NCBI GenBank assembly: GCA_046732575.1
Contig: JBKPNJ010000085.1
Location: 1 to 34,064 of the forward strand
Direction of reading: 5' to 3'
Length of the DNA stretch: 34,064 nt
From: Actinomycetota bacterium
Lineage (GTDB): Bacteria > Actinomycetota > Actinomycetes > Propionibacteriales > Nocardioidaceae
Below, piece after piece: positions 4,649 through 30,760 of the stretch. A program made the position numbers and the translations under genes. The notes below the pieces were generated by a model that had not been told where the DNA came from, did no database searches, and worked only from the letters and a program-made list of their open reading frames with translations. The stretch's first letter is position 1, and the number at the start of each line of letters is the position of its first letter.

Positions 4649-5494
4649 ATGTTGCGAATCGCGGTGCCGAACAAGGGCTCACTGGCCGACTCGGCTGCCG
4701 AGATGCTCCGCGAAGCGGGCTACCGGCAGCGCAAGGACAACCGTGAGCTGGTGCTGACCGATCCCGACAACGACGTGGAGTTCTTCTACCTCCGGCCGCG
4801 CGACATCGCGGTCTACGTCGGGGAGGGCACGCTGGACCTCGGGATCACCGGTCGGGACCTGCTGCTGGACTCCGGAGCACCGGCCGAGGAAGTGCTGCCG
4901 CTCGGGTTCGGCGAGTCGACGCTCCGCTTCGCCGCCCCTCCCGGACTCATCGCCGGCGCCGGCGAGCTTCGCGGGCTCCGGATCGCGACGGCGTACTCCG
5001 GGGTGCTGCGCCGCTGGCTGGACACGCGCAACGTCGACGCGACGGTCATCCGGCTGGACGGCGCAGTCGAGAGCGCCGTCCGCCTCGGAGTGGCTGACGC
5101 GATCGCCGACGTCGTGTCGACGGGTACGACGCTGCGCGAGGCCGGCCTGGAACTGGTCGGGGAGCCGATCCTGGAGTCACAGGCAGTGGTCATCCGCCGC
5201 GCCGGCCGCGAGCCGCCGACCGGCTTCGACATCTTCGAGCGGCGGCTGCAGGGCGTACTGGTGGCGCGGACCTTCGTGATGATGGACTACGACATCCGGG
5301 TGGAGTTCGTCGAGGACGCCGTCGCCGTAACACCGGGCATCGAGTCCCCGACGGTGTCACCGCTACATCGCAAGGGCTGGGTGGCGGTGCGGTCGATGGT
5401 CCCGCGGGCCACAGCGCAGCGGGTGATGGACGAGCTCTGGGAGCTGGGCGCCCGGGGGATCCTGGTCACCGACATCCACGCCTGCCGCCTCTGA
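4649..5494 (+). CDS. hisG: ATP phosphoribosyltransferase (long form)
   Basis: MLRIAVPNKGSL...EAGY and DLGITGRDLL motifs, with a C-terminal regulatory domain. It follows hisE. Confidence 0.92.
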   Translation: MLRIAVPNKGSLADSAAEMLREAGYRQRKDNRELVLTDPDNDVEFFYLRPRDIAVYVGEGTLDLGITGRDLLLDSGAPAEEVLPLGFGESTLRFAAPPGLIAGAGELRGLRIATAYSGVLRRWLDTRNVDATVIRLDGAVESAVRLGVADAIADVVSTGTTLREAGLELVGEPILESQAVVIRRAGREPPTGFDIFERRLQGVLVARTFVMMDYDIRVEFVEDAVAVTPGIESPTVSPLHRKGWVAVRSMVPRATAQRVMDELWELGARGILVTDIHACRL

Positions 5495-6570: not shown

Positions 6571-7974
6571 TCAGCCGCTCCGCTCGCGAGTGCTTCTCGC
6601 GGCAAGGGCCTCGATCGCGGCGGAGAAGCACTCCATCGGTGGCGCGACGAGCCCGGCTCCCACCTGGCCCGTCCCCGCGATCCTTCCGGCCATGCCCGTG
6701 TTGATCTGCGGCAGGATCCCGGTGCGGAGCACCCGGGTGACGTCGATCCCCGTCGGAGCGCCGCGGAACTCCAGGATCGGTATCGCATAGGCGGGGTTCT
6801 CCGTGACGGTGATCTCGTACATCCGCTCGGTCGTCGCGAGTGCGTCCGGCACGCTGCCCCCAACGAACCGGACGATCGCCGGGGCGGTCGCCATCGAGAA
6901 CCCGCCGAGCCCTGCGGTCTCGGTGATCGCCGAGTCCCCGATATCCGGGTTCGCGTCGTCGGGACCGTAGGAGCCGAGATAGAGGCCGTCGGCCACACGC
7001 GCCGGGCCGGTGAACCAGTCGCCGCCGGTGCTCGAGACCTGGATCCCGAAGTCGGTGCCGTTGCGGGCCATCGTCGTGACCACCGTGCACCCGGGGATCG
7101 CATCGGCCGCCACCGTCTGAAGCTTGCAGGCGGGCATGACCAGGTTGAGGAAGAAGTGGTCGTTCGCCGAGACGAACCGCACCGCCTCGGCAACCTCGGC
7201 GCTCGGCCGGCCGGAGTCGATCATCGCCGGGAGCAGCTCGCGCAGCAGCATCAATGTTCCGGCCCGGTTGCGGTTGTGCCCCTCGTCGCCCATCTGGACC
7301 ATCTGCGCGATCACGGCCTTGATGTCGACCGGCCCGGTGCGGTCCACCGCTCGCTTCAGGAGTGGACCGAGGACATCGCTCATCCAGTGCAGTCGCTGGA
7401 CCACCTGTTCGTCGTATGCGCCGTACCGAAGGACCTTGCCCAGGCCCTCGTTGAGAGAGCACCAGGACGAGTTGCCGTGGACGTCGTCGCGCAGCTCGCA
7501 CAACCACATCGAGGACGAGACGATCCCGGCCATCGGCCCCACCGCCCCACGGTGATGGCAGGGTTCCCAGCTCACATCCCCACGCCCGAGCGCTGCCTCG
7601 GCGGCCTCAGGGGAGTCGGCCAGACCCTCGAAGAGCATCGCGCCGATCAGGCCGCCGCGCAGCGGGCCCGAGGCGCGCTCCCAGGCGATCGGAGGGCCGG
7701 CGTGCAGGAAGTGCCCGGGCCCGAGTCCCAGCGCAGCGCTCGCCGGCTGTACGTCCACCAGCATCGCCTCGGCGGCCAGCATCCGGGCGCCGGCCTCGGC
7801 GTTGCCCGCTGCGCGGCGAGCGTCGCCCATCACCGACGCCAGCGCATCCTCGGTGCCCGGGACGGGAGGCCCCCAGTCCACTCTCGTCGTCTCGACCCCC
7901 TGGGTCTCCAGGGCGTCGGCGAACAGGGCCGCACCGGCCGTGATCACGCTCGGTGGCTCGGCCAGCAGGCTCAT
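6571..7974 (-). CDS. DUF1116 protein, YlbE (AllG)-like
   Basis: Long collinear similarity, from memory, to E. coli YlbE: HAGPP, CHH..AVGPM, NEGLGKVLRYGAY, DHFFLNL, MARNG..FGI, NPDIGDSAITET.G.GG, INTGMA...GQVGAG. Its ATG overlaps the stop of the upstream FdrA-like gene (ATGA). Confidence 0.85.
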   Translation of the reverse strand: MSLLAEPPSVITAGAALFADALETQGVETTRVDWGPPVPGTEDALASVMGDARRAAGNAEAGARMLAAEAMLVDVQPASAALGLGPGHFLHAGPPIAWERASGPLRGGLIGAMLFEGLADSPEAAEAALGRGDVSWEPCHHRGAVGPMAGIVSSSMWLCELRDDVHGNSSWCSLNEGLGKVLRYGAYDEQVVQRLHWMSDVLGPLLKRAVDRTGPVDIKAVIAQMVQMGDEGHNRNRAGTLMLLRELLPAMIDSGRPSAEVAEAVRFVSANDHFFLNLVMPACKLQTVAADAIPGCTVVTTMARNGTDFGIQVSSTGGDWFTGPARVADGLYLGSYGPDDANPDIGDSAITETAGLGGFSMATAPAIVRFVGGSVPDALATTERMYEITVTENPAYAIPILEFRGAPTGIDVTRVLRTGILPQINTGMAGRIAGTGQVGAGLVAPPMECFSAAIEALAARSTRERSG

Positions 7975-9455
7975 CTGTTCGCACCCCCGAGGAGTGAGAC
8001 GGCGGTGCGAGTTGCGGCGGCGTTGGACAGGAAGACGTGCGCCCCGGCCTCCCTGAGCCCCTCCGCCTGACGCGTGAGGCCCTGCGGGTCGTCCCGCGTG
8101 CCGATCAGCGAGACGAGCACCGGGACGTCCCGAACGGACCGGGCGGCCGAGACCGCGGGACCCAGCTGCGATGCCGGGTCCGGGTGTGCGCCGTGTCCGA
8201 GCACCACATCGAGCAGGAGCGCGCCGACCTCCGGGTCCCTCGCCTCCCGGTCCAGGCGTTCGACCCGCAGGGAGCCGTCGATCATCGGGTGCGGCCGTCC
8301 CACAGTGAGCGCATCGTCGCCGAAGTCGATCATCGTGTGCCCGCGCGAGCTCCTCGTCGGGTCCAACGCCCCCGACCCGGACAGTGGAATATTCGACGCG
8401 ATGTCGCCGAGTCTGGCGGAGGCGATGAGCATCGCCTCGTCACACAGCGTTCCGCCGGCGAACAGTCCACGCAGGTAGCGACCGCGTCCCTTGGCGGGGA
8501 CCTGCGGTGGGTGGTCGGCGGGTTCACACCAGCGGCCCCCCGCGGCCTCGGCGACGCTGCGCGCGGCCGCGGTGATGTCGGGCTGCCCCGGACCGAGGAG
8601 GGCGAAGACGACCGGCTTGCCCAGTCCTTCGGCGTGTGCGCGTACCAAGCCGGCTGTCTCTGCGGCGGGTGGCTTCGACACCACGGCGACCACCTCGACG
8701 GCCGGGTCGGCGGCGAGCAGGTCGAGCGCGCGAAGCGTCGACCGCCCGGCGACCTCAGCCGACAGGTCCCGCCCCCCGACGCCCAGGCAGTGCCTGACAC
8801 CGACATCCGCAGCGTCAAGCAGGGTCATCACATGCTGGGCACCGGTGCCGGAAGCGGCGACGATCCCAACGGGGCCCGGGCGGACGACGTTGGCGAAACC
8901 GAGCCCGACGCCGCACACAACCGCCGTACCGCAGTCGGGGCCCATCAGCAGCAGGCCGCGCTCCTGGGCGGTCACCTTGAGCGCGACCTCGTTCTCGAGG
9001 CTGACGTTGTCGCTGAACAGCATGACGTCGAGACCGGCGTCGAGGGCATCGGCCGCGTCGACCGCGGCGACCCGGCCCGGCGTGGACACCAACGCCAGCG
9101 TCGCGGCCACCCGCCTGGACGCCGCACCGATCGTGCGCGGCGCCGCCGCAGCCCCGAAGCCGCTCGGCGAGGGCTTGGTCCGCTCCGCGAGCGCCGAGTC
9201 CAACGACGACACCGCAGCGTCGAGCACCGTTCGGTCCTTCGCCCGGATCGCCACCACGAGCTGGTTCGGTGAGGGGTCCGATGGTGCCCGCAGACCCATC
9301 TCCTGCAGCATCTGGAGGTTCAGCGGCGTGGCCATCGCGACCAGCGCCGCACCGACTCCCGGCCGGGCCTGGATCGCCTGGCTGACCTGCATCAGGGTCA
9401 CCGAGTCGTGGTACGCCCCCGAGCGCACCTCGACATGGCTGACCGGGTCGGTCAT
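7971..9455 (-). CDS. FdrA (AllF)-like protein, succinyl-CoA-synthetase-alpha-type fold
   Basis: YHDSVTLMQVS, MLFSDNVSLENEV.LK, GLLLMGPDCGT, ASGTGAQ, LGVGGRDLS, VSKPPA and DALTVGRPHPMID are all shared with E. coli FdrA. The start ATG at 9455 (MTDPVSHVEV) overlaps the DUF2877 stop. The ORF-track extension to 9701 is rejected. Confidence 0.85.
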   Translation of the reverse strand: MTDPVSHVEVRSGAYHDSVTLMQVSQAIQARPGVGAALVAMATPLNLQMLQEMGLRAPSDPSPNQLVVAIRAKDRTVLDAAVSSLDSALAERTKPSPSGFGAAAAPRTIGAASRRVAATLALVSTPGRVAAVDAADALDAGLDVMLFSDNVSLENEVALKVTAQERGLLLMGPDCGTAVVCGVGLGFANVVRPGPVGIVAASGTGAQHVMTLLDAADVGVRHCLGVGGRDLSAEVAGRSTLRALDLLAADPAVEVVAVVSKPPAAETAGLVRAHAEGLGKPVVFALLGPGQPDITAAARSVAEAAGGRWCEPADHPPQVPAKGRGRYLRGLFAGGTLCDEAMLIASARLGDIASNIPLSGSGALDPTRSSRGHTMIDFGDDALTVGRPHPMIDGSLRVERLDREARDPEVGALLLDVVLGHGAHPDPASQLGPAVSAARSVRDVPVLVSLIGTRDDPQGLTRQAEGLREAGAHVFLSNAAATRTAVSLLGGANR

Positions 9456-10195
9456 GCAGCGGCCTCGTATCGACCCTCGGTAACCGTCAGCTGGAGCCCG
9501 AGCAGCATCGCCCGGCCGCTGGTCCCACCCACCGCCCGCAGCGAGGCGAGTGCTGCCGCCGGATCGGCGCCACGATCGACCACATCGATCAACGCGGCGA
9601 GCGCTCCGACGCAGTAGCCCTCGCACGCATGACGGAGCAGGGCCGCGGAGAGCGCTGACGTCCGCGACCAGAGCCCCGCCGGGTCGCACCAGTCCGGGCA
9701 CGGCTCCATACCGAACGCGTTGAGCAGCACCAGCGACCCCACGAGCACGTCGTCGCCGGCCGGGGTGAGGCCCGGGCCGCGGCCGATCAAGCGCTCGGGC
9801 CGTCCGAGGTCCACCTGATCCAGCTGCACATCATCGGAACGTACGCGGGGCAGCTGAGCGACCCCGGCAAGGAATCGGCTCCGGTTCGCGATGCGGGGGC
9901 GGGGGGGAGCCCACCAGCGGTGGGGGCGCACGGTCTGGTTGCCGGCGACCAGCTTGCCGTCGCCGATCACCGCGGAGCCGCGCTCGCCGAGGTCGAGCTC
10001 CCCGTCGTACACCACCGAGCAGGGCAGCACTATCGCGCGGCTGCGCTGCAACGACACCACCCGAAAGCCCGGCGCCGACGTGGTCAGGTGCCATGCCACC
10101 TGGGTGCCGGAGACGGCGCGCAGTGATGTGGGCGGACCGTCGAACAGCGGCGCCAGCACCGAGCTGGCGGCGGCTGCCATCGGAGGACCCGGCAC
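9452..10195 (-). CDS. DUF2877 protein, YlbF (AllH)-like
   Basis: GRGPGLTPAGDDVLVG motif and a helical C-terminus typical of DUF2877. It is the first gene of the minus-strand trio. I prefer GTG 10195 as the start, with GGAAGGAG 5 nt upstream; ATG 10180 or ATG 10279 are alternatives. Codons upstream of 10195 have poor GC3. Confidence 0.7.
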   Translation of the reverse strand: MPGPPMAAAASSVLAPLFDGPPTSLRAVSGTQVAWHLTTSAPGFRVVSLQRSRAIVLPCSVVYDGELDLGERGSAVIGDGKLVAGNQTVRPHRWWAPPRPRIANRSRFLAGVAQLPRVRSDDVQLDQVDLGRPERLIGRGPGLTPAGDDVLVGSLVLLNAFGMEPCPDWCDPAGLWSRTSALSAALLRHACEGYCVGALAALIDVVDRGADPAAALASLRAVGGTSGRAMLLGLQLTVTEGRYEAAA

Positions 10196-10373
10196 CCTCG
10201 CTCCTTCCCGTCCGCCCAGCGCGGGAAACTCACATGCTAGCGGTGCCGTCGCAGGCAATGAGGACGCGTTTTCGGGCATGGTTGCCTCGACGGGACCGGT
10301 CACACGGGCTGGCGGCATCGACGGCGCCGGCGGGGAGATGCGGTGCGCGGCACCGCTGAAGGGTGGGACGGAC

Positions 10374-11783
10374 ATGGCGCTTGGGTGGAAGCTCGTACAC
10401 GACGGAAGGACACCGCCGCCAGGTGAGGCGGTCGCACCCGACGAGCGGCTTTCGTGGGGCCGCACGGTCGGCCTCGGCGCCCAGCACGTGGTGGCCATGT
10501 TCGGCGCAACCTTCGTGTTCCCGCTGATCATGGGCCTCAACCCGCAGCTCGCGATCATGATGAGCGGCATCGCCACGATCTGCTTCCTGCTGATCGTGCA
10601 GGGAAAGGTGCCGAGCTACCTCGGCACCAGCGCCTCCTTCGTCGGCGGTGTGGCAGCCATCCGGGCGCAGGGAGGCGACTCCGCCGACGTCACCGGCGCG
10701 ATTCTGATCGCGGGCTTCGTCCTGCTGCTGGTCGGGCTGCTGATCCACTTCGCCGGTCCTCATCTGCTGCAGGTCGTCCTGCCGCCTGCTGTGACCGGAG
10801 CGGTGGTCATGCTCATCGGGTTCAACCTCGCGCCGGTCGTGGCGCACATCTACTGGCCGCAGGACCAGTGGATCGCCTTCGCCACCATGACGTTCGTCAT
10901 CCTGGTGGCGGTCGGCGTCCGTGGCTTCTTCGGCCGCATCGCGATCTTCCTCGGTCTCGTCTTCGGGTACCTCCTGTCCTGGTTCGCCGACGCGGCCTTC
11001 GGACCGATCACGTCGTTCGACGCCGCGGCCGGCAAGGTGACCACGCATGACCGTGTGAGCTGGACGAGCGTGAAGGCGGCGGACTGGATCGGGCTCCCGC
11101 CGCACACCGACGACGCCGCGGGCGTGGTCGGCTGGCACTGGCCAAGCTTCTCGGTGACGTTCACCCTGCTGGTGCTCCCGGCCGTCATCGCCCTGGTCGC
11201 GGAGAACACCGGGCACGTGAAGGCTGTCGGTGAGATGACGCGCCGCGACCTCGACCCGGTGATGGGGCGGGCCATCGCCGCCGACGGTTTCGGCACCATG
11301 CTCGCCTCCTCCGTGGGCGGCTCACCGACGACCACGTACGCCGAGAACATCGGGGTGATGGCCGCGACGCGTGTGTACTCGACCGCCGCGTACTACGTCG
11401 CCGCCGTGGTCGCGATCCTCTTCGGGCTGTCACCGAAGTTCGGCGCCCTGGTGGCCTCGACCCCGGGGGGCGTGCTCGGCGGCATCACCGTCGTCCTCTA
11501 CGGCATGATCGGCCTGCTGGGTGCAAAGATCTGGAAGGAGAACGCCGTCGACTTCGGCAATCCGATCAACCTGGTTCCGCTCGCCGCAGGGATCATCATC
11601 GCGATCGGCGACACCTCGCTGAAGGTCACCGACGACTTCATCCTCTCCGGTATCGCCCTCGGGACACTGGTCGTCGTGGTGTTCTACCACCTGGCCCGGG
11701 CTGTGGCGCCCGCCCATCTGCGTGAGGATGGGACGGTGCTCAGCGTGGGCACGCCGGGAGCACACCGCACCGACGACGTCTGA
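10374..11783 (+). CDS. NCS2/NAT-family nucleobase permease, uracil-type
   Basis: LGAQHVVAMFGATFVFP and the NAT signature TYAENIGVMAATR, with Glu (not Gln) at the first signature position as in UraA/PyrP. Polytopic. ATG 10374 is preceded by GAAGGGTGGGA. Confidence 0.85.
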   Translation: MALGWKLVHDGRTPPPGEAVAPDERLSWGRTVGLGAQHVVAMFGATFVFPLIMGLNPQLAIMMSGIATICFLLIVQGKVPSYLGTSASFVGGVAAIRAQGGDSADVTGAILIAGFVLLLVGLLIHFAGPHLLQVVLPPAVTGAVVMLIGFNLAPVVAHIYWPQDQWIAFATMTFVILVAVGVRGFFGRIAIFLGLVFGYLLSWFADAAFGPITSFDAAAGKVTTHDRVSWTSVKAADWIGLPPHTDDAAGVVGWHWPSFSVTFTLLVLPAVIALVAENTGHVKAVGEMTRRDLDPVMGRAIAADGFGTMLASSVGGSPTTTYAENIGVMAATRVYSTAAYYVAAVVAILFGLSPKFGALVASTPGGVLGGITVVLYGMIGLLGAKIWKENAVDFGNPINLVPLAAGIIIAIGDTSLKVTDDFILSGIALGTLVVVVFYHLARAVAPAHLREDGTVLSVGTPGAHRTDDV

Positions 11784-11802
11784 ACCGAGGCAGACCGCGA
11801 CC

Positions 11803-12681
11803 GTGAAGCCGTCCCCCTTCACCTATCACCGGCCCCACTCCGTCGACGAAGCGCTGACCGTGCTCGCGGAGGTGGCCGCGGACGGCAAGGTGCTCGCCGG
11901 CGGGCAGAGCCTCGTCCCGCTGCTGTCGATGCGGCTGGCGGCGCCCGCGCACCTTGTCGACATCAACCACATCCCCGGTCTTGACTCGATCGAGGTCGCA
12001 GACGGGCTGGTACGCATCGGGGCGGCCGTGCGTCACGCCGCGCTCGAGCACAGCGACGCTGCTGCAAGCGCGATCCCGCTTCTGCGGCAGACGGTCACCT
12101 GGATCGCGCATCCCACCATCCGTAACCGTGGCACGAGCCTGGGCAGCATCGTGCACGCCGACCCCGCCGGCGAGCTCCCGGCCGTGCTGGCCCTCCTCGA
12201 CGGCGAGGTGGAGGCAGCAAGCACGAGCGGTCGTCGGCGCATCGCCGCCGCAGAGTTCTTCCTCGGGCCGCTGGAGAGCGCGCTGGTCCCCGGTGAGCTG
12301 GCGGTCACCGCCACCTTCCGTGTGCCCGCGCCGGGCAGCGGCTCGGCGTGGACCGAGGTCGCGCGCCGGCACGGCGACTACGCTGTGTGCGGAGTGGGAG
12401 CCACCGTGACCGTTGACGACGACCGGATCGTCACCGCTGCCCGGGTCGCGCTGATCTCGGTCGGTCCCGTACCGGTCCTCGTCGACCTGGCCGAGCAGCT
12501 GACGGGGCAGGACGCCGACCACCTCGACGTCGGCGATGCAACCGCGATGGTGCTGAGCCGCATCGACGCGGAGGACGACATCCACGCCAGCGCGCGCTAC
12601 CGCCGACAGCTCGCCCAGGTGCTGACCGGCCGGGCCCTGCGCGCGGCCGTTCGCCACGGGACCGGCCTGGCGGCGGCGTGA
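11803..12681 (+). CDS. Molybdenum hydroxylase FAD-binding (medium, CoxM/XdhB-like) subunit
   Basis: VKPSPFTYHRPHSVDEAL...LAGGQSLVPLLSMRL is the canonical FAD-binding subunit N-terminus. GTG start at 11803. The stop overlaps the next start (GTGA at 12678-12681). Confidence 0.88.
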   Translation: MKPSPFTYHRPHSVDEALTVLAEVAADGKVLAGGQSLVPLLSMRLAAPAHLVDINHIPGLDSIEVADGLVRIGAAVRHAALEHSDAAASAIPLLRQTVTWIAHPTIRNRGTSLGSIVHADPAGELPAVLALLDGEVEAASTSGRRRIAAAEFFLGPLESALVPGELAVTATFRVPAPGSGSAWTEVARRHGDYAVCGVGATVTVDDDRIVTAARVALISVGPVPVLVDLAEQLTGQDADHLDVGDATAMVLSRIDAEDDIHASARYRRQLAQVLTGRALRAAVRHGTGLAAA

Positions 12682-13172
12682 GCGCGCCGCCGGTCGAGAG
12701 CGTCCACCACATCACCCTCCTCGTCAACGGGGTGCCGCTCGAGCTGACGGTGCCGGCACGCCGGCTGCTGTCCGACGCACTGCGTCACGACCTGCGGTTG
12801 ACCGGTACGCACGTGGGCTGTGAGCACGGCGTGTGCGGAGCTTGCACGGTGCTGGTCGACGGCCGGCCGACCCGGTCCTGCCTGGTCTTCGCGGTGAGTG
12901 TGGAAGGCTCCTCGATCACCACCGTGGAAGGGTGCTGCGAGACCGACGGCTCGATGGGCCGCGTGCAGCGGGCATTCCAGCGCTGCCATGCACTGCAGTG
13001 CGGGTTCTGCACGCCGGGGTTCGTCACCACGATCACCGCGTTCCTGCGCGACAACCCCGACCCGAGCGACGCCGATGCCCGCGAGGCGATCGCCGGCAAC
13101 CTCTGCCGCTGCACGGGATACCAGAACATCGTCGCGGCCGTGCTCAGCGCCGCCCGGGACGGCTCGCCGTGA
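12678..13172 (+). CDS. Molybdenum hydroxylase 2x[2Fe-2S] (small, CoxS/XdhC-iron-sulfur-like) subunit
   Basis: GCEHGVCGACTV (plant-type cluster) and QCGFCTPG...NLCRCTGYQNI (second cluster). Confidence 0.92.
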   Translation: MSAPPVESVHHITLLVNGVPLELTVPARRLLSDALRHDLRLTGTHVGCEHGVCGACTVLVDGRPTRSCLVFAVSVEGSSITTVEGCCETDGSMGRVQRAFQRCHALQCGFCTPGFVTTITAFLRDNPDPSDADAREAIAGNLCRCTGYQNIVAAVLSAARDGSP

Positions 13173-15616
13173 CCACCAGGATGCTGGGCCAACCGGTGCA
13201 GCGCGCGGAGGACCCACGGCTGCTCACCGGCAACGGCCGCTACCTCGACGACCTCGGCCAGACCGCGTATGCCGCTGCGTTCCTCCGCTCTCCACACGCC
13301 CACGCCCGGATCGCGTCCGTCGACGTCAGCGACGCGCTCGAGGTCGAGGGGCTGATCGCGATCTACACCCACGAGGACCTCGAGGGCCGGGCGGCCGAGC
13401 CGCTGCCGCTGCTGATCCCGCACCCGTCGCTGTCGCACGGCCGCACCCCGTACGCCCTTGCGCGCGACGAGGTCAACCACGTCGGTGAGGCGATAGCGAT
13501 GGTGGTGGCCAGCGACCGGTACGTCGCCGAGGACGTTCTGGAGCGGATCACTGTCGAGTACGACTTCCTGACCCCTGTCGTCGGCCTGGAGTCGTCTCGC
13601 GCCGCCGAGAGCCTGGTGCACGACGACGTGCCCGGCAACGTCGCCGCACACCTGCTCCAGGAGACCGGGAACGCCGAGGCGGCCATCGACGCCGCGCCGC
13701 ACCAGCTGTCGCTGGACCTCTCGATCGAGCGCAGTGCATCCACGCCGATGGAGGGCAAGGGCGTCCTCGCCAGGTGGGACCCCGACGACCGGTCGCTTCT
13801 CGTGCACACCTCCACCCAGACCTCCACCAGCGTCCGTCAGGCCATCGCGGCCAAGCTCGAGCTGCCGGTCGACCGGGTGGAGGTGGTGACGCCGGACGTG
13901 GGAGGCGGTTTCGGCGTCAAGATCGTGCATCCGTGGCCGGAGGAGATCATGGTCCCCTGGGCCGCGATCAGGCTCGGGCATCCGGTCAAGTGGGTCGAGG
14001 ACCGCCGTGAGCACTTCATCTCCAGCGCGCACGAACGGGCCCAGCTGCACCAGGTCCGAGTCGGCTTCGACGACAACGGTCGGCTGCAGGGGCTGTCGGT
14101 GCGGTTCTGGCACGACAACGGGGCCTACACGCCGTACGGCCTGATCGTGCCGATCATCACCGCCACGCAGCTCCTGGGACCATACAAGCCGGGGCCGTAC
14201 CGGGTGGAGTTCTGGAGCATCTACACCAACACGGTGATCGTGACGCCGTACCGTGGTGCCGGCCGGCCACAGGGATGCTTCGTGATGGAGCGAACGCTCG
14301 ACGCCATCGCCGACGAGCTGGGTATCGACCGGGCGGTGGTCCGCGCCAACAACTTCATCCAGCCCGGGGAGATGCCGTACGACCACGGCCTGCTGTTCCA
14401 GGACGGTCGTCCGCTGATCTACGACTCGGGCGACTTCCCGGCCACGCTGGCCAAGCTCCGCGCTCTGGTCGGCTGGGACGACTTCGAGGTCTACCGGGAC
14501 CATGCCCGGGCAGAGGGCCGGACGGTCGGCATCGGGATGGGCTGCTACGTCGAGGGCACCGGCGTCGGACCGTACGAAGGTGGACACCTGCGGATCGAGA
14601 CCGACGGCACGGTTGTGGTGTCCACCGGACTGACCAGCCAGGGGCAGGGCCATCAGACGATGCTCGCCCAGCTTGTGTCCGACGAGCTCGGGGTGCCGTT
14701 CGACCGGATCCGGGTGACCACCGGGGACACCCGCAGGTTCAAGTACGCGGTCGGAACCTTCGCCTCCCGTACCGCGGTGATGAGCGGGAGCGCGGTCGCC
14801 TTGACCGCCCGCAAGGTGCGCGCCAAGGCACTGCGGATCGCCGCGCAGGCACTCGAGGCCGACCCCGACGATCTGGAGATCGTCGCCGGGATGGTCCGGG
14901 TCAGGGGAGCCCCGGCGGCGGAGATCGACCTCGGCGCGGTCGCCGTCTTGTCGAACCCGCTGCGCTACGCCTTCGACGAGGCGGCGTCGCGGGCGACGCA
15001 GTTCGTGACGTCGGTCGATCCGGACATGCCACCGGTCGCGTTGGGCGACGAGCCCGGGCTGGAGGGCACCGCGTACTACTCGCCGCCGCGCTCGACGTTC
15101 GCCAACGGCATGCACGCCGTCGTGGTGGAGACCGACCCGGAGACCGCGGAGATCACGGTGCTGCGGTACTGCGTCGTGCACGACTGCGGCACCGTCATCA
15201 ACCCGATGATCCTCGAGGGCCAGATCCACGGTGGCGTGGCGCAGGGGGTGGGCGGCGCACTCTACGAGCGGATGGTCTACGACTCGTCGGGCCAGCTGCT
15301 CAATGCCAGCTTCATGGACTTCCTGATGCCGTACGTCACCGAGGTGCCGCCGATCGAGATCGACCACCTCGAGACGCCCTCGCCGTTGAACCCGCTCGGC
15401 GTCAAGGGGGCGGGGGAGGCGGGTGTGATCCCCGGCTCGGCAGCTGTCGCGGCGGCGATCGAGGACGCGGAGGGGTTCCGGATCACCGCGATGCCGATCT
15501 CGCCCAGCGAGCTGTTCGACCTTCGCCGCGGCGCCCTCGAGGGCCGGGTTCCGTGGCTGCGCGGGAGGCGTCCGGCGGACGTCGCGGACGGTTCATCCGC
15601 GGCAGGCGGCTCGTGA
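13169..15616 (+). CDS. Molybdenum hydroxylase molybdopterin-binding (large, form-II CoxL-like) subunit
   Basis: N-terminus MLGQPVQRAEDPRLLTGNGRYLDD, DVGGGFGVK, and the active-site loop TPYRGAGRPQG (YRGAGR at 14249-14266). The start is GTG 13169 (GTGA overlap) or ATG 13181. Confidence 0.9.
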   Translation: MTTRMLGQPVQRAEDPRLLTGNGRYLDDLGQTAYAAAFLRSPHAHARIASVDVSDALEVEGLIAIYTHEDLEGRAAEPLPLLIPHPSLSHGRTPYALARDEVNHVGEAIAMVVASDRYVAEDVLERITVEYDFLTPVVGLESSRAAESLVHDDVPGNVAAHLLQETGNAEAAIDAAPHQLSLDLSIERSASTPMEGKGVLARWDPDDRSLLVHTSTQTSTSVRQAIAAKLELPVDRVEVVTPDVGGGFGVKIVHPWPEEIMVPWAAIRLGHPVKWVEDRREHFISSAHERAQLHQVRVGFDDNGRLQGLSVRFWHDNGAYTPYGLIVPIITATQLLGPYKPGPYRVEFWSIYTNTVIVTPYRGAGRPQGCFVMERTLDAIADELGIDRAVVRANNFIQPGEMPYDHGLLFQDGRPLIYDSGDFPATLAKLRALVGWDDFEVYRDHARAEGRTVGIGMGCYVEGTGVGPYEGGHLRIETDGTVVVSTGLTSQGQGHQTMLAQLVSDELGVPFDRIRVTTGDTRRFKYAVGTFASRTAVMSGSAVALTARKVRAKALRIAAQALEADPDDLEIVAGMVRVRGAPAAEIDLGAVAVLSNPLRYAFDEAASRATQFVTSVDPDMPPVALGDEPGLEGTAYYSPPRSTFANGMHAVVVETDPETAEITVLRYCVVHDCGTVINPMILEGQIHGGVAQGVGGALYERMVYDSSGQLLNASFMDFLMPYVTEVPPIEIDHLETPSPLNPLGVKGAGEAGVIPGSAAVAAAIEDAEGFRITAMPISPSELFDLRRGALEGRVPWLRGRRPADVADGSSAAGGS

Positions 15617-15841
15617 CCGGTCGTCCACCCGATCGGCGCGGGTCGCTCCCGATGGACGGCTACGGAAGCGTCACTGCGCAGGCCGTCCGCGGGCTGGCGG
15701 CTCACGGGGAGTCGACACTGAGCCCGGCGACGCCTCCGGGCGCCGGGCCCGGCGCCGATCCCGGGCCCCGCACGCTGCCTGAGACTCCGAGCCGGGGAAC
15801 CGGCGGGTCGTCTCGCCCGCGGAATGCCACACTTGACCACC

Positions 15842-16483
15842 ATGAAGGTCTCCGGCACCGCAACCCTGAACGGATCCCGCGAGAACGTGTGGCGGGCGCT
15901 CAACGACCCCGAGGTGCTGGTGCGGACCATCCCCGGATGTCAGCAACTGGAGACCATCGACCAGGACGCCTACCGGATGACGCTCACGGCCGGTGTCGCC
16001 TCCATCAAGGGCGTCTACCAGGGCGAGGTGCGCCTGGAGGACCACGACGAACCCGGCTCCTTCACGCTCCGGGCGGCGGGATCCGGCGCGCCGGGAACCG
16101 TCAGCGCCGACGTCAAGGTCAGGCTGGACCAGGGACCGACGGGCACGACCCTGCTGAGCTATGACGCCGATGCGATCGTCGGGGGGATGATCGGCGGCGT
16201 CGGTCAGCGGATGCTGACCGGGGTGGCGAAGAAGACTGCCGGTGAGTTCTTCGGCAACGTCGACGATGTGCTCACCGGTGTCGCCCGGTCGCCAGCCCAC
16301 GGCGAGACCGGCACTCCCGCGGCGCGCGAGCGGGCGACGGATCGGGTCTTCCGCTCACCGGCGGCACAGCCGGCCGGTTCGGTCACGGGCGCTGACTTCA
16401 GGGCCGGCGTCGTCGCCGGCGCGCTGGCTGCGCTCCTCGGAGCGGTCGTCGGAGGATGGCTGTCGGGGCGCCGCCGCACCTGA
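15842..16483 (+). CDS. CoxG-like SRPBCC protein with a C-terminal transmembrane tail
   Basis: MKVSGTATLNGSRENVWRALNDPEVL...IKGVYQGEV...GGVGQRML is typical CoxG. An Ala/Pro/Gly linker follows, then GVVAGALAALLGAVVGGWL-SGRRRT. The alternative start is ATG 15824. Confidence 0.8.
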   Translation: MKVSGTATLNGSRENVWRALNDPEVLVRTIPGCQQLETIDQDAYRMTLTAGVASIKGVYQGEVRLEDHDEPGSFTLRAAGSGAPGTVSADVKVRLDQGPTGTTLLSYDADAIVGGMIGGVGQRMLTGVAKKTAGEFFGNVDDVLTGVARSPAHGETGTPAARERATDRVFRSPAAQPAGSVTGADFRAGVVAGALAALLGAVVGGWLSGRRRT

Positions 16484-16549
16484 TCGGGCGAACCGGACGG
16501 AGATCTGCCAGACCAGGGATCCAGACAACGTGAGACACGAGGAACCGAG

Positions 16550-17458
16550 ATGCGAGCATTCACCGCCGCAGCAGTGCAGGTCCGGCCGCTGCACGCACCG
16601 CTGACCAGGGACAGCATCGAGGCGAACGTCGGACACTGCGTGGACTACGTGCACCGCTGCGTCACCGACACCGCCGCCGAGCTGGTGGTGCTGCCGGAGA
16701 CCTGCACGACGGGGTTCACCCCCGGCCTCGGTCCGGAAGAGCTGTTCGAGGTCATCGGGCCGTTCGTCCAAGGGGCCACAGAGCCTCTGCACGCAGCCGC
16801 AGCCGACCTCGGGATACACCTGGTCTACGGAGCGTACGAGCGCGGTCCGGAGCCCGGTGTCGTGTACAACGCCGCGGTGCTCGTCGGCCCGGACGGCGGC
16901 ACGCTGGGCGTCTACCGCAAGACGCACCCGTTCTGCACCGAGACCCGGGCACGCGGGGGGTGGGTGACTCCGGGGGACGACGTATGCGTCGTGCAGACCG
17001 ACCTGGGCCGGATCGGGCTGATCATCTGCTTCGACGGTGACTTTCCCGAGCTGTCGAGGATCAACGCGCTGGAGGGCGCCGACGTCATCTGCCGGCCGTC
17101 GGCGCTGCTGCGCAGCGCCGACATCTGGGAGCTGACCAACCGGGCGCGTGCCTACGACAATCATGTCTTCCTGATCGGCGCCAACGCGGTGGGCGTCGAC
17201 CCGGCCGGCGTGCTCTACTTCGGCAACTCGATGATCGTCACGCCGATAGCGGAGGTCATCGCCCGTGGCTCCACGCACGAGTCATGGGTGACCGCGGTGC
17301 TCGACCCCGACCGTGCCCTGTCGTCGCTGACCCCGGGCTCCAGCGTGCCGCAGGGCTTCGACCACCTGGCGGACCGCAATCTCGACCTGCTGGCGAAGTA
17401 CGCCGACAGGCTGGCCGGTCCGGGCGCGACGTCGTTCCCGTTCGGCAGCGAGGCGTGA
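16550..17458 (+). CDS. Carbon-nitrogen hydrolase (nitrilase superfamily) amidase/carbamoylase
   Basis: Catalytic triad contexts VVLPE, VYRKTHPF and GLIICFDGDFPE. This superfamily includes N-carbamoyl-D-amino-acid hydrolase and beta-ureidopropionase. Confidence 0.85.
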   Translation: MRAFTAAAVQVRPLHAPLTRDSIEANVGHCVDYVHRCVTDTAAELVVLPETCTTGFTPGLGPEELFEVIGPFVQGATEPLHAAAADLGIHLVYGAYERGPEPGVVYNAAVLVGPDGGTLGVYRKTHPFCTETRARGGWVTPGDDVCVVQTDLGRIGLIICFDGDFPELSRINALEGADVICRPSALLRSADIWELTNRARAYDNHVFLIGANAVGVDPAGVLYFGNSMIVTPIAEVIARGSTHESWVTAVLDPDRALSSLTPGSSVPQGFDHLADRNLDLLAKYADRLAGPGATSFPFGSEA

Positions 17459-19578
17459 CACGCCGGATCCGCATCGGCGTCGACACCGGGGGCACGTTCA
17501 CCGACGTGGTCGCCGTCGACGAGTCGACCGGACGGCTCGAAGCCACCAAGACACCGTCGACCCCTGCCGATCCGGCACAGGGCTTCATGACCGGGGTGCA
17601 CAAGGTCCTCGCCGCTCTGGATCTCGCCGGAGACTCGATCAGCGCGGTGAGCCACGGCACCACGGTCGCCACCAACAAGCTGCTCGAAGGCAAGGTGGAG
17701 AACCTGGGTTTCATCACCACCGAGGGCTACGGCCACATCCTGGAGATCGCCCGGCAGTCGGTTCCAGACGGCTACGGCAACTCGTACTTCTGGGTCAAGC
17801 CGCCGCGGATAGTGCCGGCGGACCGGGTCAAGACCGTCCCGGGACGGCTGCTGGTCGATGGCAGCGAGCTGCGTCCGTTCGACGAGGACGCGGCGATCGA
17901 GGTCGCCCGCTGGTTCGCCGACCGGGGTACCACGGCGATCGGCGTCTGCTTCCTGCACTCCTACGCCAACCCGGCCCACGAGCTGGCGATGCTGGACGTG
18001 CTGACCCGAGAGCACCCACAGGCCGTCGTCTCGATCTCCTCACACGTGCTGCGCGAGTACCGCGAGTACGAGCGCAGCGTCACCACGCTGGTGGACGCAG
18101 CGGTGAAGCCCGACATCCGGCGCTACGTGGCGAACATCACCGCACACCTGAGCGCATTCACCGGCATTGGCACCTCCGCCGGCTCAGCCCCGACCCGCCC
18201 CGTCCCGTTCTACGTGATGAAGTCGAATGGCGGCGTGCTCTCGGCGGAGGAGGTCGTGAACCAGCCGATCACGACAGTGCTGTCGGGGCCCGCCGCCGGA
18301 GCGCTCGGTGCCTCCGTCGTCGCCGAACGGGCTGGCCTGCGGGAGGTGGTCACCTGTGACGGAGGTGGCACGTCGACCGACGTCACAGTCGTCCTGGATG
18401 GGCAACCGGCGCTGACGACCGAGGGCTCGGTCGGCGCGTATCCATCCAAGATCCCGATGATCGACGTGGTGACGGTCGGCGCCGGCGGCGGGTCGATCGC
18501 TTGGGTGAGCCCGGAGGGCACGCTCAAGGTGGGGCCGCGCTCGGCCGGCGCCGACCCCGGCCCGATGTGCTACGGCCGCGGCGGCTCCGAGCCCACGGTC
18601 ACCGACGCCCACCTGCTGCTCGGCCGGATCCCACCACGCCTGCTGGGCGGGGAAGTGCCACTGGCTGTCGAGGAGGCACGCCCTGGAATGGATGCGCTGG
18701 CCGGCAAGCTGGCCATGACCCCGGAGTCGTGTGCGGCCGGCATCCTGGAGATCTCGGCGTGGAACCAGGCCAACGCGATTCGCCAGGTCACCGTCAAGCG
18801 AGGATTGGACATCCGAGACTTCCACCTGGTGACGTTCGGCGGCTCCGGCTCGCTGCTGGCCTGCCGGCTGGTCGACGTCCTGGAGCTCGGGGGGGTGCTC
18901 GTTCCGCTCGACCCCGGCAGTCTGTCGGCGTACGGCCTGCTGACGGTCGACGTCCGAAACGACTACGTCCAGACCGCGGTCGAGCGGCAGTCGAGGCTGT
19001 CGGTCACTGCGGTCCGCTCGATCTTCGACGACCTGCGGTCGCAGGCCGACGCGGCGCTGGCTCGCGAGGGCTTCGGCGCGCAGGCGCGGCGGTTCGTGCG
19101 GACCGCCGATCTGCGCTACTACGGACAGGCGTTCGAGGTACGGGTCGAAGTTCCCGACGGGCCGGTGACCCCCGACCTGCTCGCGGTGGTTGCCGCCGCG
19201 TTCCACGAGGAGCACAGCGCGCTGTACGGATACGACTTCCGCGACGACCGCCGACAGGAGGTCGAGTGGGTCAACCTACGGGTCACCGGTGTGGGCCCGA
19301 TCCGCAAGCCCGGAACAAGGAGCGTCGAGGCGGGCCGCGGGGCGGACTCGGCGCGCACCGGAACGCGCCCGGTGCTCTTCGACGAATGGATGGACAGCGC
19401 GGTCTACGACCGGCTCGGGCTCGGCGCGGGCGACGTTGTCGACGGCCCGGCGGTGCTCGAGGAGTTCAGCTCCACCGTCCCGGTGCATCCCGGGTTCCGA
19501 GCCACAGTCGACGGTGCGGGAAACCTCCTCATCGCGCGGGCGGCGGCAGAGGCGACCAGCGGTCGGACCGGCTCGTGA
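17455..19578 (+). CDS. hyuA: Hydantoinase/oxoprolinase family, A subunit (ATP-binding)
   Basis: IGVDTGGTFTDVVAVD N-terminus, followed by Hydantoinase_A-type regions (GGGTSTDV, VGAGGGSIAW). GTG 17455 overlaps the CN-hydrolase stop (GTGA). Confidence 0.88.
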   Translation: MTRRIRIGVDTGGTFTDVVAVDESTGRLEATKTPSTPADPAQGFMTGVHKVLAALDLAGDSISAVSHGTTVATNKLLEGKVENLGFITTEGYGHILEIARQSVPDGYGNSYFWVKPPRIVPADRVKTVPGRLLVDGSELRPFDEDAAIEVARWFADRGTTAIGVCFLHSYANPAHELAMLDVLTREHPQAVVSISSHVLREYREYERSVTTLVDAAVKPDIRRYVANITAHLSAFTGIGTSAGSAPTRPVPFYVMKSNGGVLSAEEVVNQPITTVLSGPAAGALGASVVAERAGLREVVTCDGGGTSTDVTVVLDGQPALTTEGSVGAYPSKIPMIDVVTVGAGGGSIAWVSPEGTLKVGPRSAGADPGPMCYGRGGSEPTVTDAHLLLGRIPPRLLGGEVPLAVEEARPGMDALAGKLAMTPESCAAGILEISAWNQANAIRQVTVKRGLDIRDFHLVTFGGSGSLLACRLVDVLELGGVLVPLDPGSLSAYGLLTVDVRNDYVQTAVERQSRLSVTAVRSIFDDLRSQADAALAREGFGAQARRFVRTADLRYYGQAFEVRVEVPDGPVTPDLLAVVAAAFHEEHSALYGYDFRDDRRQEVEWVNLRVTGVGPIRKPGTRSVEAGRGADSARTGTRPVLFDEWMDSAVYDRLGLGAGDVVDGPAVLEEFSSTVPVHPGFRATVDGAGNLLIARAAAEATSGRTGS

Positions 19579-21458
19579 GCGGCCACCGGCTCACCGGCGC
19601 GGGCCAGGTCGACCCGGTACTCGTCGAGATCGTCGAGGGATACCTCGCCGCTGTCGAGCAGGAGGTGGAGAGCGCGATCGGGCGCACCAGCCGGTCACCG
19701 ATGATCCGGGACGCCCACGACTACCGGGCCGGCATCCACGACCGCCACCTGCGCAAGCTCACCGGCCGGTCGTACTCCGCGCTGGTGCACCCGGTCGCGC
19801 GTGACTACCCACTGGACACCATGCGACCCGGCGACGTGTTCTTCCACAACGACGTCTACCTGTCCGAGGGGGGAATCGGCCACCTGCCCGACCTGTGCGT
19901 GACCGCACCGGTCTTCCACGACAGCGGCGGCGGCCCGGAGGTGGTGGGCTTCGTCCAGGCGTTCGGGCACCACGACGACATCGGTGGCGCGGTGCCGGGA
20001 TCGATGCCGAGCCAGGCAACCAGCGTGTTCGAGGAGGGCCTGATGGTTCCCCCGATCAAGCTCTGGGACGCGGGAGTGCCGTGCGAGCAGGCATTGAAGA
20101 TCATGACCCGCAACTCGCGGATGCCTGAGTCGCTGGCGGCAGACCTCGACGCGGAGTGCTCAGCCTGCCTGCTGGGCGGGCATCGGCTGGCCGCATTGTT
20201 CACCCGGTACGGCAAGGCCACCGTCGAGGCATGCTTCGACGCCGTCCTGGACAAGACCACGGAGACGTTCCGGCGGGAGGTGCTGGCCAAGATCCCCGCC
20301 GGCAGATACACCTGGGAGGACTACGCCGAGCATGACGGGGTCGATGCGCCGCGGCTGCATACGCAACGCATCACGCTCACCAAGATCGACGATGACGGCG
20401 GTAGCCTCGTGCTCGACTTCGACGGTACCGGTCCGCAGGCCAGGGGCCCGATCAACCACTGCGGAGACTACGCCGACGGCAACTTCCTGAAGAAGTGGCT
20501 GGCGCCGATCCTTCGCAACCTGGCCGACTCGCCGGAGCGGATGGCCGAGCTCGACGTCAACGAGGGCGTCGTGCCGCTGATCGAGATGCGCTTCCCGCCG
20601 AAAGGAACGCTGCTCACCCCACGGTTCCCGGCTCCGACCAACGCCCGCACGTTCGTCATTCTCCGCCTGCTCGGTGTGCTCGCCGGGGTGCTCGCCAAGG
20701 CCGTCGACGGCCGGATGCCGGCCGACCAGGAGACGATCCGCTACACAGGTGTCTACGGCGACGACCTCGACGGGAAGCCGTACCTGATGCGCGAGGTGCT
20801 CGGGGGCGGCTCCGGCGGCCGGTACTACGCCGACGGAGAGGACACCATCCACGTAGTGCCGGACTCGCGAAACCTGCCGACTGAGTTCTCCGAAGCCAGG
20901 TTCCCGTTCATCGTCGAGCGGCTGGGCCTGGCCTGCGACAGCGGCGGCGCGGGGCGTTTCCGGGGTGGGCTGGGGTACGAGAAGCACATCAGGATGCGCA
21001 GGGACGCCCACTTCATGTCGATCGCCGACCGGTCGATCCTGGCCTGCTGGGGTGTCAACGGCGGAAGGGCCGGTCGCCCCTTCCAGGTGGTTATCGACCC
21101 CGACGGACCCGATGAGCGCCGCGTCGACGCGTTGGCCGATGCCGAGCCGGTCAAGGCCGGCGAAGTGATCCGGATCCGCACCACCGGTGGAGGCGGATGG
21201 GGCGACCCGCTCGAGCGCCCGTACGACGATGTGCTCCGCGATGTCTGCTGGGGGAAGGTGTCGGTCGAGGGCGCGCGATCCGACTACGGCGTCGAGCTGT
21301 CGATGGCCGGCGGGGAGCCGGTGCTGGACGTATCCGCCAGCGAACAGCGGCGTGCCCGGCTGCGCGCCGAGCGCGACGACGAACCGTTCTTCGACCGCGG
21401 CCCCGGATACGCAAGTCTCTCGGGCGGCCGGCGGGCTGCCGAATGCGACTGGCGGTGA
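19575..21458 (+). CDS. hyuB: Hydantoinase/oxoprolinase family, B subunit
   Basis: DPVLVEIVEGYLAAVEQEV...SPMIRDAHDY...HNDVYLSEGGIGHLPD...GGGGWGDPLERP are typical of HyuB/oxoprolinase C-terminal halves. GTG 19575 overlaps the hyuA stop. Confidence 0.88.
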   Translation: MSGHRLTGAGQVDPVLVEIVEGYLAAVEQEVESAIGRTSRSPMIRDAHDYRAGIHDRHLRKLTGRSYSALVHPVARDYPLDTMRPGDVFFHNDVYLSEGGIGHLPDLCVTAPVFHDSGGGPEVVGFVQAFGHHDDIGGAVPGSMPSQATSVFEEGLMVPPIKLWDAGVPCEQALKIMTRNSRMPESLAADLDAECSACLLGGHRLAALFTRYGKATVEACFDAVLDKTTETFRREVLAKIPAGRYTWEDYAEHDGVDAPRLHTQRITLTKIDDDGGSLVLDFDGTGPQARGPINHCGDYADGNFLKKWLAPILRNLADSPERMAELDVNEGVVPLIEMRFPPKGTLLTPRFPAPTNARTFVILRLLGVLAGVLAKAVDGRMPADQETIRYTGVYGDDLDGKPYLMREVLGGGSGGRYYADGEDTIHVVPDSRNLPTEFSEARFPFIVERLGLACDSGGAGRFRGGLGYEKHIRMRRDAHFMSIADRSILACWGVNGGRAGRPFQVVIDPDGPDERRVDALADAEPVKAGEVIRIRTTGGGGWGDPLERPYDDVLRDVCWGKVSVEGARSDYGVELSMAGGEPVLDVSASEQRRARLRAERDDEPFFDRGPGYASLSGGRRAAECDWR

Positions 21459-22054
21459 GCCGCGCCGAGGAGACGACCGGCGAGCCGCTGGCCCGTCCGT
21501 CCGCCGAGCAGCTCCAGGGGTCCCCCAGCGAGCTGGTGGCCGCGCTGTCGGCCCGCTGGGGCACCGACCGCGTCGCCGAGTACTGCGCCGGGCTGCTGCA
21601 GGGTGACGACCCGCTCGGCTGTCCCGAAGCACTGCTGTTCATCGGCGGGCGTGGGGCGGCCGGTCTCACCCGGCTGGGCGACGGGCGAGCGGCGCTGCGT
21701 TACTGGCCGAGGGTCTGGGCGGCACGGGCGTTGCGGTATGCGTGGTCACAGACCGCGGTCCCCGCGGTGGTGGCCGCGCTGGACGACGAGTCCTGGAGAG
21801 TGGCCGAGCAGGCGATGAAGGTGATGGCGAGGTACGAGGTGAGCGAGGGCGTGGAGGCAGCGCTGCGCTGGGTCGACGACGAGCTGCCGAGGGTGCGAGC
21901 GACGACACTGCGGCTGCTCGGAGCGGTTGGTGAGTCCGAGCACGTCCGGTACGTCCTGGATGCCCGGCACGACCCGCACCCGGGGGTGCGCAGCTCGGCC
22001 TCGAACGCGCTGTCGCGGCTCGAACGCCGGCTCGACAGGGAGCTGCCGCGATGA
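21455..22054 (+). CDS. HEAT-repeat (PBS-lyase-type) protein of unknown function
   Basis: Repeated helical units each end in an Asp-x-x-x-x-Val-Arg pattern: DDESWRVAEQAMKVM, DDELPRVRATTLRLLG, DPHPGVRSSASNALSRL. The start is GTG 21455 (GTGA overlap with hyuB) or ATG 21443. Its stop overlaps the carbamate kinase ATG. Confidence 0.6.
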   Translation: MSRAEETTGEPLARPSAEQLQGSPSELVAALSARWGTDRVAEYCAGLLQGDDPLGCPEALLFIGGRGAAGLTRLGDGRAALRYWPRVWAARALRYAWSQTAVPAVVAALDDESWRVAEQAMKVMARYEVSEGVEAALRWVDDELPRVRATTLRLLGAVGESEHVRYVLDARHDPHPGVRSSASNALSRLERRLDRELPR

Positions 22055-24771: not shown

Positions 24772-24787
24772 GCGGTCACGTCGGCGG

Positions 24788-26107: not shown

Positions 26108-26149
26108 CCGGTGGTCGACAGCCCACTCACCGACTCTCCAGGAGGACCC

Positions 26150-29570: not shown

Positions 29571-30760
<1,190 letters not shown>

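Follow-up and report, generated by a model that had tools for sequence, protein, structure and literature searches.

A three-subunit molybdenum hydroxylase encoded with barbiturase in soil actinobacteria as a candidate uracil/thymine dehydrogenase

The DNA analyzed here (the window; the whole stretch of 34,064 nucleotides of contig JBKPNJ010000085.1, assembly GCA_046732575.1; G+C content ca. 70%) comes from an actinobacterium of the Nocardioidaceae family and encodes, at positions 11803-15616 of the plus strand, an intact three-subunit molybdenum hydroxylase of the xanthine oxidase superfamily, equipped for flavin adenine dinucleotide (FAD), two [2Fe-2S] clusters, and Mo, for which we propose the function of a uracil/thymine dehydrogenase (EC 1.17.99.4). 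The enzyme comprises (i) a medium FAD-binding subunit (CoxM-like; 11803-12681, 292 residues, 30.3 kDa) with the Pfam domains FAD_binding_5 and CO_deh_flav_C; (ii) a small 2x[2Fe-2S] subunit (CoxS-like; 12678-13172, 164 residues, 17.3 kDa) with the domains Fer2 and Fer2_2 and both cysteine motifs, C-x4-C-x2-C-x11-C and C-x2-C-x31-C-x-C; and (iii) a large molybdopterin subunit (CoxL-like; 13169-15616, 815 residues, 87.7 kDa), the proposed catalytic subunit, in which PF01315 (Ald_Xan_dh_C, α/β-hammerhead), PF02738 (MoCoBD_1), and PF20256 (MoCoBD_2) all score above the Pfam cut-offs. The three genes are translationally coupled through 4-nt overlaps, with CoxM starting at a GTG codon at 11803, preceded by GAGG 12 nt upstream, and CoxL at a GTG codon at 13169 that overlaps the preceding stop codon. 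Every sizeable open reading frame of the window was given an assignment by Pfam/NCBIfam profile scans; the domain E-values of the three subunits range from 1e-23 to 1e-88, which, together with an end-to-end NCBIfam match of 1503 bits, excludes a chance match.

Translation of positions 14231-14290 yields TVIVTPYRGAGRPQGCFVME, locating the active-site loop P-Y-R-G-A-G-R of the large subunit at 14246-14266, as the initial annotation had read it. The extended motif TPYRGAGRPQ is invariant among 82 orthologues, Rhodococcus included. In addition, the GAGEAG motif of CoxL, comprising the catalytic glutamate near the C terminus, aligns with GMGES of quinoline 2-oxidoreductase (Qor) and is conserved among the orthologues. 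According to the literature, form I CO dehydrogenases display an AYxCSFR loop with a Cu-binding cysteine, whereas form II putative CO dehydrogenases display an AYRGAGR loop and the gene order coxSLM (PMC7645674). The present loop carries a glycine at the position of the Cu-binding cysteine of form I and shares YRGAGR with form II, matching six of the seven residues of AYRGAGR, but a proline replaces the first alanine and the genes are arranged as MSL rather than SLM. The form II label of the initial annotation is therefore justified by the loop as a resemblance and, to judge from the gene order, not as a membership.

The best structurally solved relatives of CoxL, all aligning over the full length, are Qor (PDB code 1T3Q, 433 bits), Kdh (7DQX, 422 bits), and the Mo-containing CO dehydrogenase from Mycobacterium smegmatis (8UEM, 396 bits), with classical xanthine dehydrogenases far behind at ca. 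145 bits. Among the NCBIfam models, NF040766 (CODH_aero_grp5) is matched along profile positions 1-785 of 785, at a score of 1503 bits (cut-off, 950). Below their cut-offs stay (i) the form I CO dehydrogenase equivalog TIGR02416 (438.8 vs 991.15 bits); (ii) the XdhA, XdhB, and PucD equivalogs (393 vs 780, 382 vs 916, 287 vs 784, and 242 vs 850), scores so far below the thresholds that a xanthine dehydrogenase was ruled out; and (iii) the 4-hydroxybenzoyl-CoA reductase models. Since NF040766 is passed end to end and the other models are not, CoxL is assigned by profile comparison to a distinct curated orthologous family within the CoxL/Qor/Kdh branch. The next-best models for the three subunits are those of archaeal glyceraldehyde dehydrogenase, second in rank for each (638, 213, and 186 bits), which raises the alternative of an aldehyde oxidoreductase that acts late in the pathway, for instance on malonate semialdehyde or a glyceraldehyde-type substrate. 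All three scores nevertheless fall short of the cut-offs (790, 350, and 290), an aldehyde intermediate is not expected downstream of barbiturase, and the hydroxylase genes stand at the head of the operon, directly after the permease gene, making this alternative very unlikely.

The name attached to NF040766, aerobic carbon-monoxide dehydrogenase large subunit, is carried by many public records and corresponds to a further reading of the locus, in which the enzyme would oxidize CO. Besides the NF040766 score itself, the coxMSL order with a CoxG gene next in line speaks for this function, as does the origin of one related locus from Terrabacter carboxydivorans. Indeed, the form I [MoCu] CO dehydrogenases (M. 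smegmatis, 8UEM/8UDS; O. carboxidovorans, 1N5W) share with the window the MSL order and the succession of structural genes by CoxG, a protein that combines an SRPBCC domain with a membrane helix at its C terminus. On the other hand, the window differs from them in lacking the loop cysteine, replaced by the glycine that is invariant in all 82 orthologues, in lacking coxD, coxE, and coxF, and in the TIGR02416 score (439 vs 991); moreover, the gene context is that of nucleobase catabolism throughout. A CO dehydrogenase was ruled out on the loop, the equivalog score, and the coxDEF genes, and a residual chance of CO as the substrate is all that we would grant. The match to NF040766 thus establishes, at the level of sequence comparison, orthology to the family and not the function in its name, which is probably wrong for this family because the loop is devoid of the Cu-binding cysteine.

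Parallels are also offered by Qor (QorMSL, 1T3Q) and 6-hydroxypseudooxynicotine (ketone) dehydrogenase (7DQX), which display the same M-S-L architecture and a YRG-type loop without cysteine, and which hydroxylate N-heterocycles next to a ring nitrogen. Compared to the 63-92% identity found within the present family, both enzymes are only distantly related, and their substrates and gene contexts differ.

The gene context of the hydroxylase is defined by a ring-opening amidohydrolase at 23006-24139 (plus strand), which scores 657 bits against PDB entry 5HWE ('Barbiturase'), with near-complete agreement residue by residue, and at most 326 bits against cyanuric acid hydrolases. The NCBIfam AtzD equivalog is also above its cut-off for this protein; the difference between 657 and at most 326 bits rules out a cyanuric acid hydrolase, and the protein is, by this comparison, a true barbiturase orthologue. 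Upstream of CoxM, a nucleobase permease of the NCS2 family, predicted to be of the pyrimidine type (10374-11783, plus strand; alternative start at 10338; Pfam Xan_ur_permease), ends 19 nt before the CoxM start. The initial annotation had described this neighbor as a uracil-type permease; RutG (348 bits) and UraA (249 bits) are indeed its best NCBIfam models, ahead of PbuX (150 bits), but all three scores remain below the cut-offs, so that the adjacency stands and the specificity is only indicated.

The plus-strand genes are ordered NCS2 permease-CoxM-CoxS-CoxL-CoxG-carbon-nitrogen hydrolase-HyuA-HyuB-HEAT-repeat protein-carbamate kinase-barbiturase. The only gaps in this string measure 19 nt (permease-CoxM), 207 nt (CoxL-CoxG), and 66 nt (CoxG-carbon-nitrogen hydrolase), whereas all junctions from the carbon-nitrogen hydrolase through barbiturase are overlaps of 4-16 nt. 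No terminator-like site was predicted within the string, in agreement with the earlier placement of hydroxylase and barbiturase in one operon; since the promoter/terminator scan inside the cluster gave no signal above the shuffled expectation, the operon structure rests on the gene overlaps. An Rfam scan over the whole window returned no match, and the sequencing runs retrieved by a search were all DNA from soil metagenomes, with no RNA among them.

The conservation of the cluster was followed among the relatives of the large subunit, of which at least 588 were found at one genome per species. The best 80 of these (CoxL identity 70-82%) were inspected with a 10-kb flank, only loci with enough flank being counted for each gene; they belong to the Nocardioidaceae, Jiangellaceae, Pseudonocardiales, Intrasporangiaceae (Terrabacter, Phycicoccus, Knoellia, Pedococcus), Embleya, Streptomyces, and Actinomadura. 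CoxS is present in 76/76 and CoxM in 69/69 loci, followed by CoxG (72/74), an amidase directly after CoxG (62/69), AllF (47/51), HyuA (47/53), the permease (53/61), AllG (42/50), HyuB (44/53), and a PucR-type regulator (46/56). Carbamate kinase (17/53), barbiturase (15/53, within the 10-kb flank), and an XdhC-like gene (4/50) are less frequent. No oxidoreductase other than the molybdenum hydroxylase is shared by every version of the cluster. Across orders, sequence conservation is unusually high for barbiturase (82-93%), HyuB (76-86%), and CoxL (70-92%), and much lower for CoxM (45-64%) and AllF (48-64%; loci L001-L085 of our collection).

The low count of barbiturase is attributed to the length of the flank, which is too short: on a Phycicoccus contig found through its barbiturase, this gene lies ca. 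5 kb past HyuB, the interval comprising genes for an NmrA protein, a cytosine/dCMP-type deaminase, a CoA transferase, a carboxyltransferase, and carbamate kinase. Look-ups centred on barbiturase disclosed the order HyuAB-NmrA-...-carbamate kinase-barbiturase-permease-CoxMSL-CoxG in Blastococcus and CoxG-CN-hydrolase-HyuAB-...-CoA transferase-carbamate kinase-barbiturase in Angustibacter. In the closest relative (L085), with a large subunit 92% identical to that of the window, the arrangement is as in the window except for a DUF222 gene in the CoxL-CoxG gap. The hydroxylase genes are thus encoded with barbiturase in the window, this closest relative, Blastococcus, Angustibacter, and, as described below, Rhodococcus qingshengii. 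This linkage, kept despite the reshuffling of gene order, is the strongest comparative sign that hydroxylase and barbiturase share a function, as far as genome comparison can tell.

The Rhodococcus locus was missed in the first search for barbiturase homologues and surfaced when the PDB sequence was used as the query, which retrieved an R. qingshengii protein 99% identical to the crystallized barbiturase. Its gene adjoins a uracil phosphoribosyltransferase (UPRTase) gene and lies 4.5 kb from an orthologous CoxMSL, the large subunit of which shows 63% identity to that of the window across 797 residues and keeps the TPYRGAGRPQ loop. The locus starts with XdhC, PucR, and permease genes; on the opposite strand follow genes for a carboxyltransferase, a CoA transferase, PucR, and UPRTase, and then come barbiturase, an amidase-signature enzyme, an aminotransferase, a second permease, CoxM, CoxS, CoxL, CoxG, and HyuA. 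The R. qingshengii barbiturase (L081 10001-11251, called as 416 residues) aligns with the window protein as two segments read in different frames, so that a frameshift or an error in sequencing is suspected near codon 326 of the gene.

The oxidative pathway and the uracil-thymine dehydrogenase activity were reportedly studied by Soong et al. (2001, 2002) in R. erythropolis, which we take to be the sister species of R. qingshengii (erythropolis group). With CoxMSL close to barbiturase in R. qingshengii, a candidate gene is present beside the barbiturase gene in the very Rhodococcus lineage where the activity was studied, orthology being judged here from the sequences. The pathway of R. erythropolis JCM 3132 comprises uracil/thymine dehydrogenase (EC 1.17.99.4), barbiturase (EC 3.5.2.1), and ureidomalonase (EC 3.5.1.95) (Soong et al., as cited in PMC3758960). 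The barbiturase encoded in the window is closely orthologous to the crystallized enzyme, and a Rhodococcus from the species group of R. erythropolis encodes an orthologous CoxMSL-CoxG-HyuA near its barbiturase. The two versions differ in the accompanying genes: the window contains AllFGH homologues and a carbamate kinase, whereas Rhodococcus displays the amidase-signature enzyme directly after barbiturase and no carbamate kinase was seen in the locus, an arrangement that fits the published urea-forming ureidomalonase.

Because the hydroxylase, a pyrimidine-type transporter, and a true barbiturase form a cluster conserved across many soil actinobacteria, we assign to CoxMSL the function of a uracil/thymine dehydrogenase with a probability of roughly 0.75. 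The initial annotation had put forward the same candidate function, which now draws on the barbiturase orthologue and on a linkage with permease and barbiturase that resists reshuffling across actinobacterial families, Rhodococcus included. Several points weigh against the assignment: (i) no enzyme assay, knockout, or expression datum for members of the family was found in the searchable literature; (ii) barbiturase appears within the fetched flank in just 15/53 loci, and the loci without a visible barbiturase are explained only by analogy with the one Phycicoccus contig; (iii) the permease stays below both the RutG and the UraA cut-offs; (iv) PucR-type regulators, known from purine catabolism, accompany most related loci; (v) the classical pathway does not account for HyuAB, so that the actual substrates may be more numerous or others altogether; and (vi) the curators at NCBI name the family aerobic CO dehydrogenase.

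Several of these points would equally suit an enzyme whose main substrate is a different N-heterocycle, one that enters the same pathway or goes along with it; a 2- or 4-pyrimidinone, a uracil substituted at C5, and a purine, for instance xanthine, come into question. Purines as well as pyrimidines are carried by NCS2 permeases and that of the window is below every specific cut-off, PucR-type regulators occur in 46/56 related loci, and the conserved HyuAB pair finds no explanation in the classical uracil route. However, barbiturate is the product of the 6-hydroxylation of uracil and the characterized barbiturase has a close orthologue in the window, UPRTase (Rhodococcus) and a cytosine-type deaminase (Phycicoccus) accompany the cluster, and xanthine in particular is disfavored by the XdhA model (393 against a cut-off of 780); we therefore regard a main substrate other than uracil or thymine as rather unlikely.

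Neither XdhC nor CoxD, CoxE, or CoxF domains were detected in any open reading frame of the window by the Pfam/NCBIfam scans, in line with the initial annotation, which had considered their absence unusual. A maturation gene is, however, likewise absent in 46/50 related loci, and the form II cluster was reported merely as coxSLM (PMC7645674), so that the absence is no strong anomaly. XdhC-like genes flank the cluster in five related loci, namely in Rhodococcus, Embleya (two loci), a metagenome-assembled genome of the Jiangellales, and Phytoactinopolyspora, which suggests that an XdhC-type chaperone is probably needed and usually encoded elsewhere in the genome, acting in trans.

In the proposed mechanism, uracil or thymine would enter through the adjacent NCS2 permease, and the Mo center would hydroxylate C6, next to N1, with oxygen derived from water, converting uracil to barbiturate and thymine to 5-methylbarbiturate, as we infer from the chemistry of the enzyme family. 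Electrons would pass from the two [2Fe-2S] clusters to FAD and then probably to menaquinone through the membrane-anchored CoxG. The CoxG-like SRPBCC protein (15824-16483, plus strand), the proposed quinone-coupling partner, contains a Pfam COXG domain, a C-terminal membrane helix with the hydrophobic tail GVVAGALAALLGAVVGGWL, and a weak match to M. smegmatis CoxG (8uds_D), a protein that binds menaquinone and links Mo-containing CO dehydrogenase to the respiratory chain (PMC12202499). By analogy, given this COXG/SRPBCC domain and helix, the 'acceptor' of EC 1.17.99.4 may be menaquinone.

Barbiturase, at the end of the operon, would then open the ring to give ureidomalonate. For the subsequent step, the window offers a divergently transcribed module on the minus strand, lying between the hisG-side flank and the permease and diverging from the same intergenic region as the plus-strand genes, which comprises (i) an AllG homologue (oxamate carbamoyltransferase subunit family; 6571-7974; PF06545, 312 bits); (ii) an AllF/FdrA homologue (7971-9455; Pfam Ligase_CoA; 404 bits against a cut-off of 433 for the NCBIfam FdrA model); and (iii) an AllH homologue (9452-10195; PF11392), with a start inferred from the ribosome-binding site and from the 249-residue orthologue of L085. 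In E. coli, the recently discovered oxamic transcarbamylase AllFGH splits oxalurate by phosphorolysis, releasing oxamate together with carbamoyl phosphate, from which AllK then makes ATP (PMC11326118). Homologues of all three subunits and of the kinase are found in the window, with the differences that they accompany barbiturase and not allantoin genes, that the FdrA score is 404 vs 433, and that the substrate proposed here by analogy is ureidomalonate, the malonyl analogue of oxalurate. Based on this analogy and on the presence of both sets of genes in the conserved cluster, the AllFGH homologues would phosphorolyse ureidomalonate to malonamate and carbamoyl phosphate, and carbamate kinase (22051-23013, plus strand; TIGR00746 arcC, 337 bits; NF009007, 301 bits vs cut-off 266) would recover ATP from the latter. 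The carbamate kinase gene overlaps the start codon of barbiturase and lies immediately 5' of it wherever both are seen in window-type clusters.

Amide hydrolysis by an amidase would finally give malonate. The candidate in the window is a carbon-nitrogen hydrolase (16550-17458, plus strand; Pfam CN_hydrolase), proposed to act on malonamate or ureidomalonate. Among the related loci, 46 have a CN-hydrolase as the amidase directly after CoxG, and 16 have an amidase-signature enzyme there (e.g., L012 13092-14525), the two never co-occurring; this exchange is a clean non-orthologous displacement, as would be expected if the substrate were a simple amide, for example malonamate. In addition, several loci contain genes for a CoA transferase and a carboxyltransferase, in keeping with malonate as the final product.

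HyuA (17455-19578, plus strand; Hydant_A_N, Hydantoinase_A, Hydant_A_C), the A subunit of the ATP-dependent hydantoinase/oxoprolinase family, and HyuB (19575-21458, plus strand; Pfam Hydantoinase_B), the B subunit, with N-methylhydantoinase 7hk5 as its best solved relative, are core members of the conserved cluster, HyuA being found in Rhodococcus too, and have no role in the classical oxidative pyrimidine pathway. Speculatively, HyuAB could catalyze the ATP-driven opening of 5-methylbarbiturate. CoxG, the AllFGH homologues, carbamate kinase, and HyuAB, all part of the conserved unit, had escaped the initial annotation of the island. Read as a whole, the 17.5-kb unit (6571-24139) could represent an undescribed, urea-free, energy-recovering variant of the oxidative pyrimidine pathway, with coupling from CoxG to menaquinone, an AllFGH-type transcarbamylase, and HyuAB acting on a ring beyond the reach of barbiturase, such as that of the thymine-derived 5-methylbarbiturate, a tentative proposal that we hold to be possible, with the odds somewhat against it.

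Between HyuB and carbamate kinase, and translationally coupled to both, lies an open reading frame for a lineage-specific HEAT-repeat protein (21443-22054, plus strand; Pfam HEAT_2), called as a gene in L085 and seen only there and in the window; it was not detected in the other 80 loci. In other lineages, NmrA-like, CoA transferase, or carboxyltransferase genes occupy the position. The CoxL-CoxG gap (15617-15823, 207 nt), the only long gap of the operon, contains in L085 the 549-residue DUF222 gene (12518-14167), which looks like an insertion. The PucR-type regulator, located between AllH and the permease in related loci (e.g., L066 3895-5622), is missing in the window and in L085, which display ca. 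180 nt of divergent intergenic DNA instead (10195-10374). Directly after barbiturase, a 215-residue P-loop NTPase (weak AAA_16 and NACHT-type hits) is encoded on the minus strand at 24127-25378, overlapping open reading frames without a family match.

The flanks of the cluster comprise riboflavin genes, hisE, hisG, and genes for a PH-domain protein and a GNAT protein upstream, and genes for a small P-loop protein and SseB, infC, rplT, a SpoU methylase gene, a histidine kinase gene, pheS, pheT, and argC downstream. The cluster is thereby framed by hisG and the housekeeping genes infC-rplT-pheST (4649-5494 and 26069-33235), that of Blastococcus likewise stands beside hisG (L082 82-930), and that of Angustibacter beside his and trp genes. 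With these recurring neighbors, the cluster looks long established in the chromosome and unlike a mobile island. The closest relatives of the window are Nocardioidaceae and actinobacterial metagenome-assembled genomes from soil metagenomes.

The activity of uracil/thymine dehydrogenase was already known in the 1950s. In the searchable papers, barbiturase is the only enzyme of the oxidative pathway with a cloned gene; full-text searches, which left most subscription journals uncovered so that prior publication is possible, returned no paper assigning genes to uracil/thymine dehydrogenase (EC 1.17.99.4) or ureidomalonase. As far as we can tell, a known enzyme family and a known activity are joined here for the first time. 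A firm candidate would make the question of the gene testable; the one proposed here keeps 63-92% identity from one actinobacterial family to another and also occurs in the Rhodococcus lineage in which the activity was studied. The assignment also bears on database names: thousands of soil actinobacterial proteins are called CO dehydrogenase through NF040766, which can inflate the counts of CO oxidizers in metagenome surveys. Should the proposal for the whole 17.5-kb unit hold, two orphan steps would gain genes and the AllFGH enzyme class would gain a second substrate. For the bacteria themselves, the cluster suggests that the electrons of pyrimidine oxidation reach the respiratory chain via CoxG and that the ureido group is recovered as ATP, not lost as urea.

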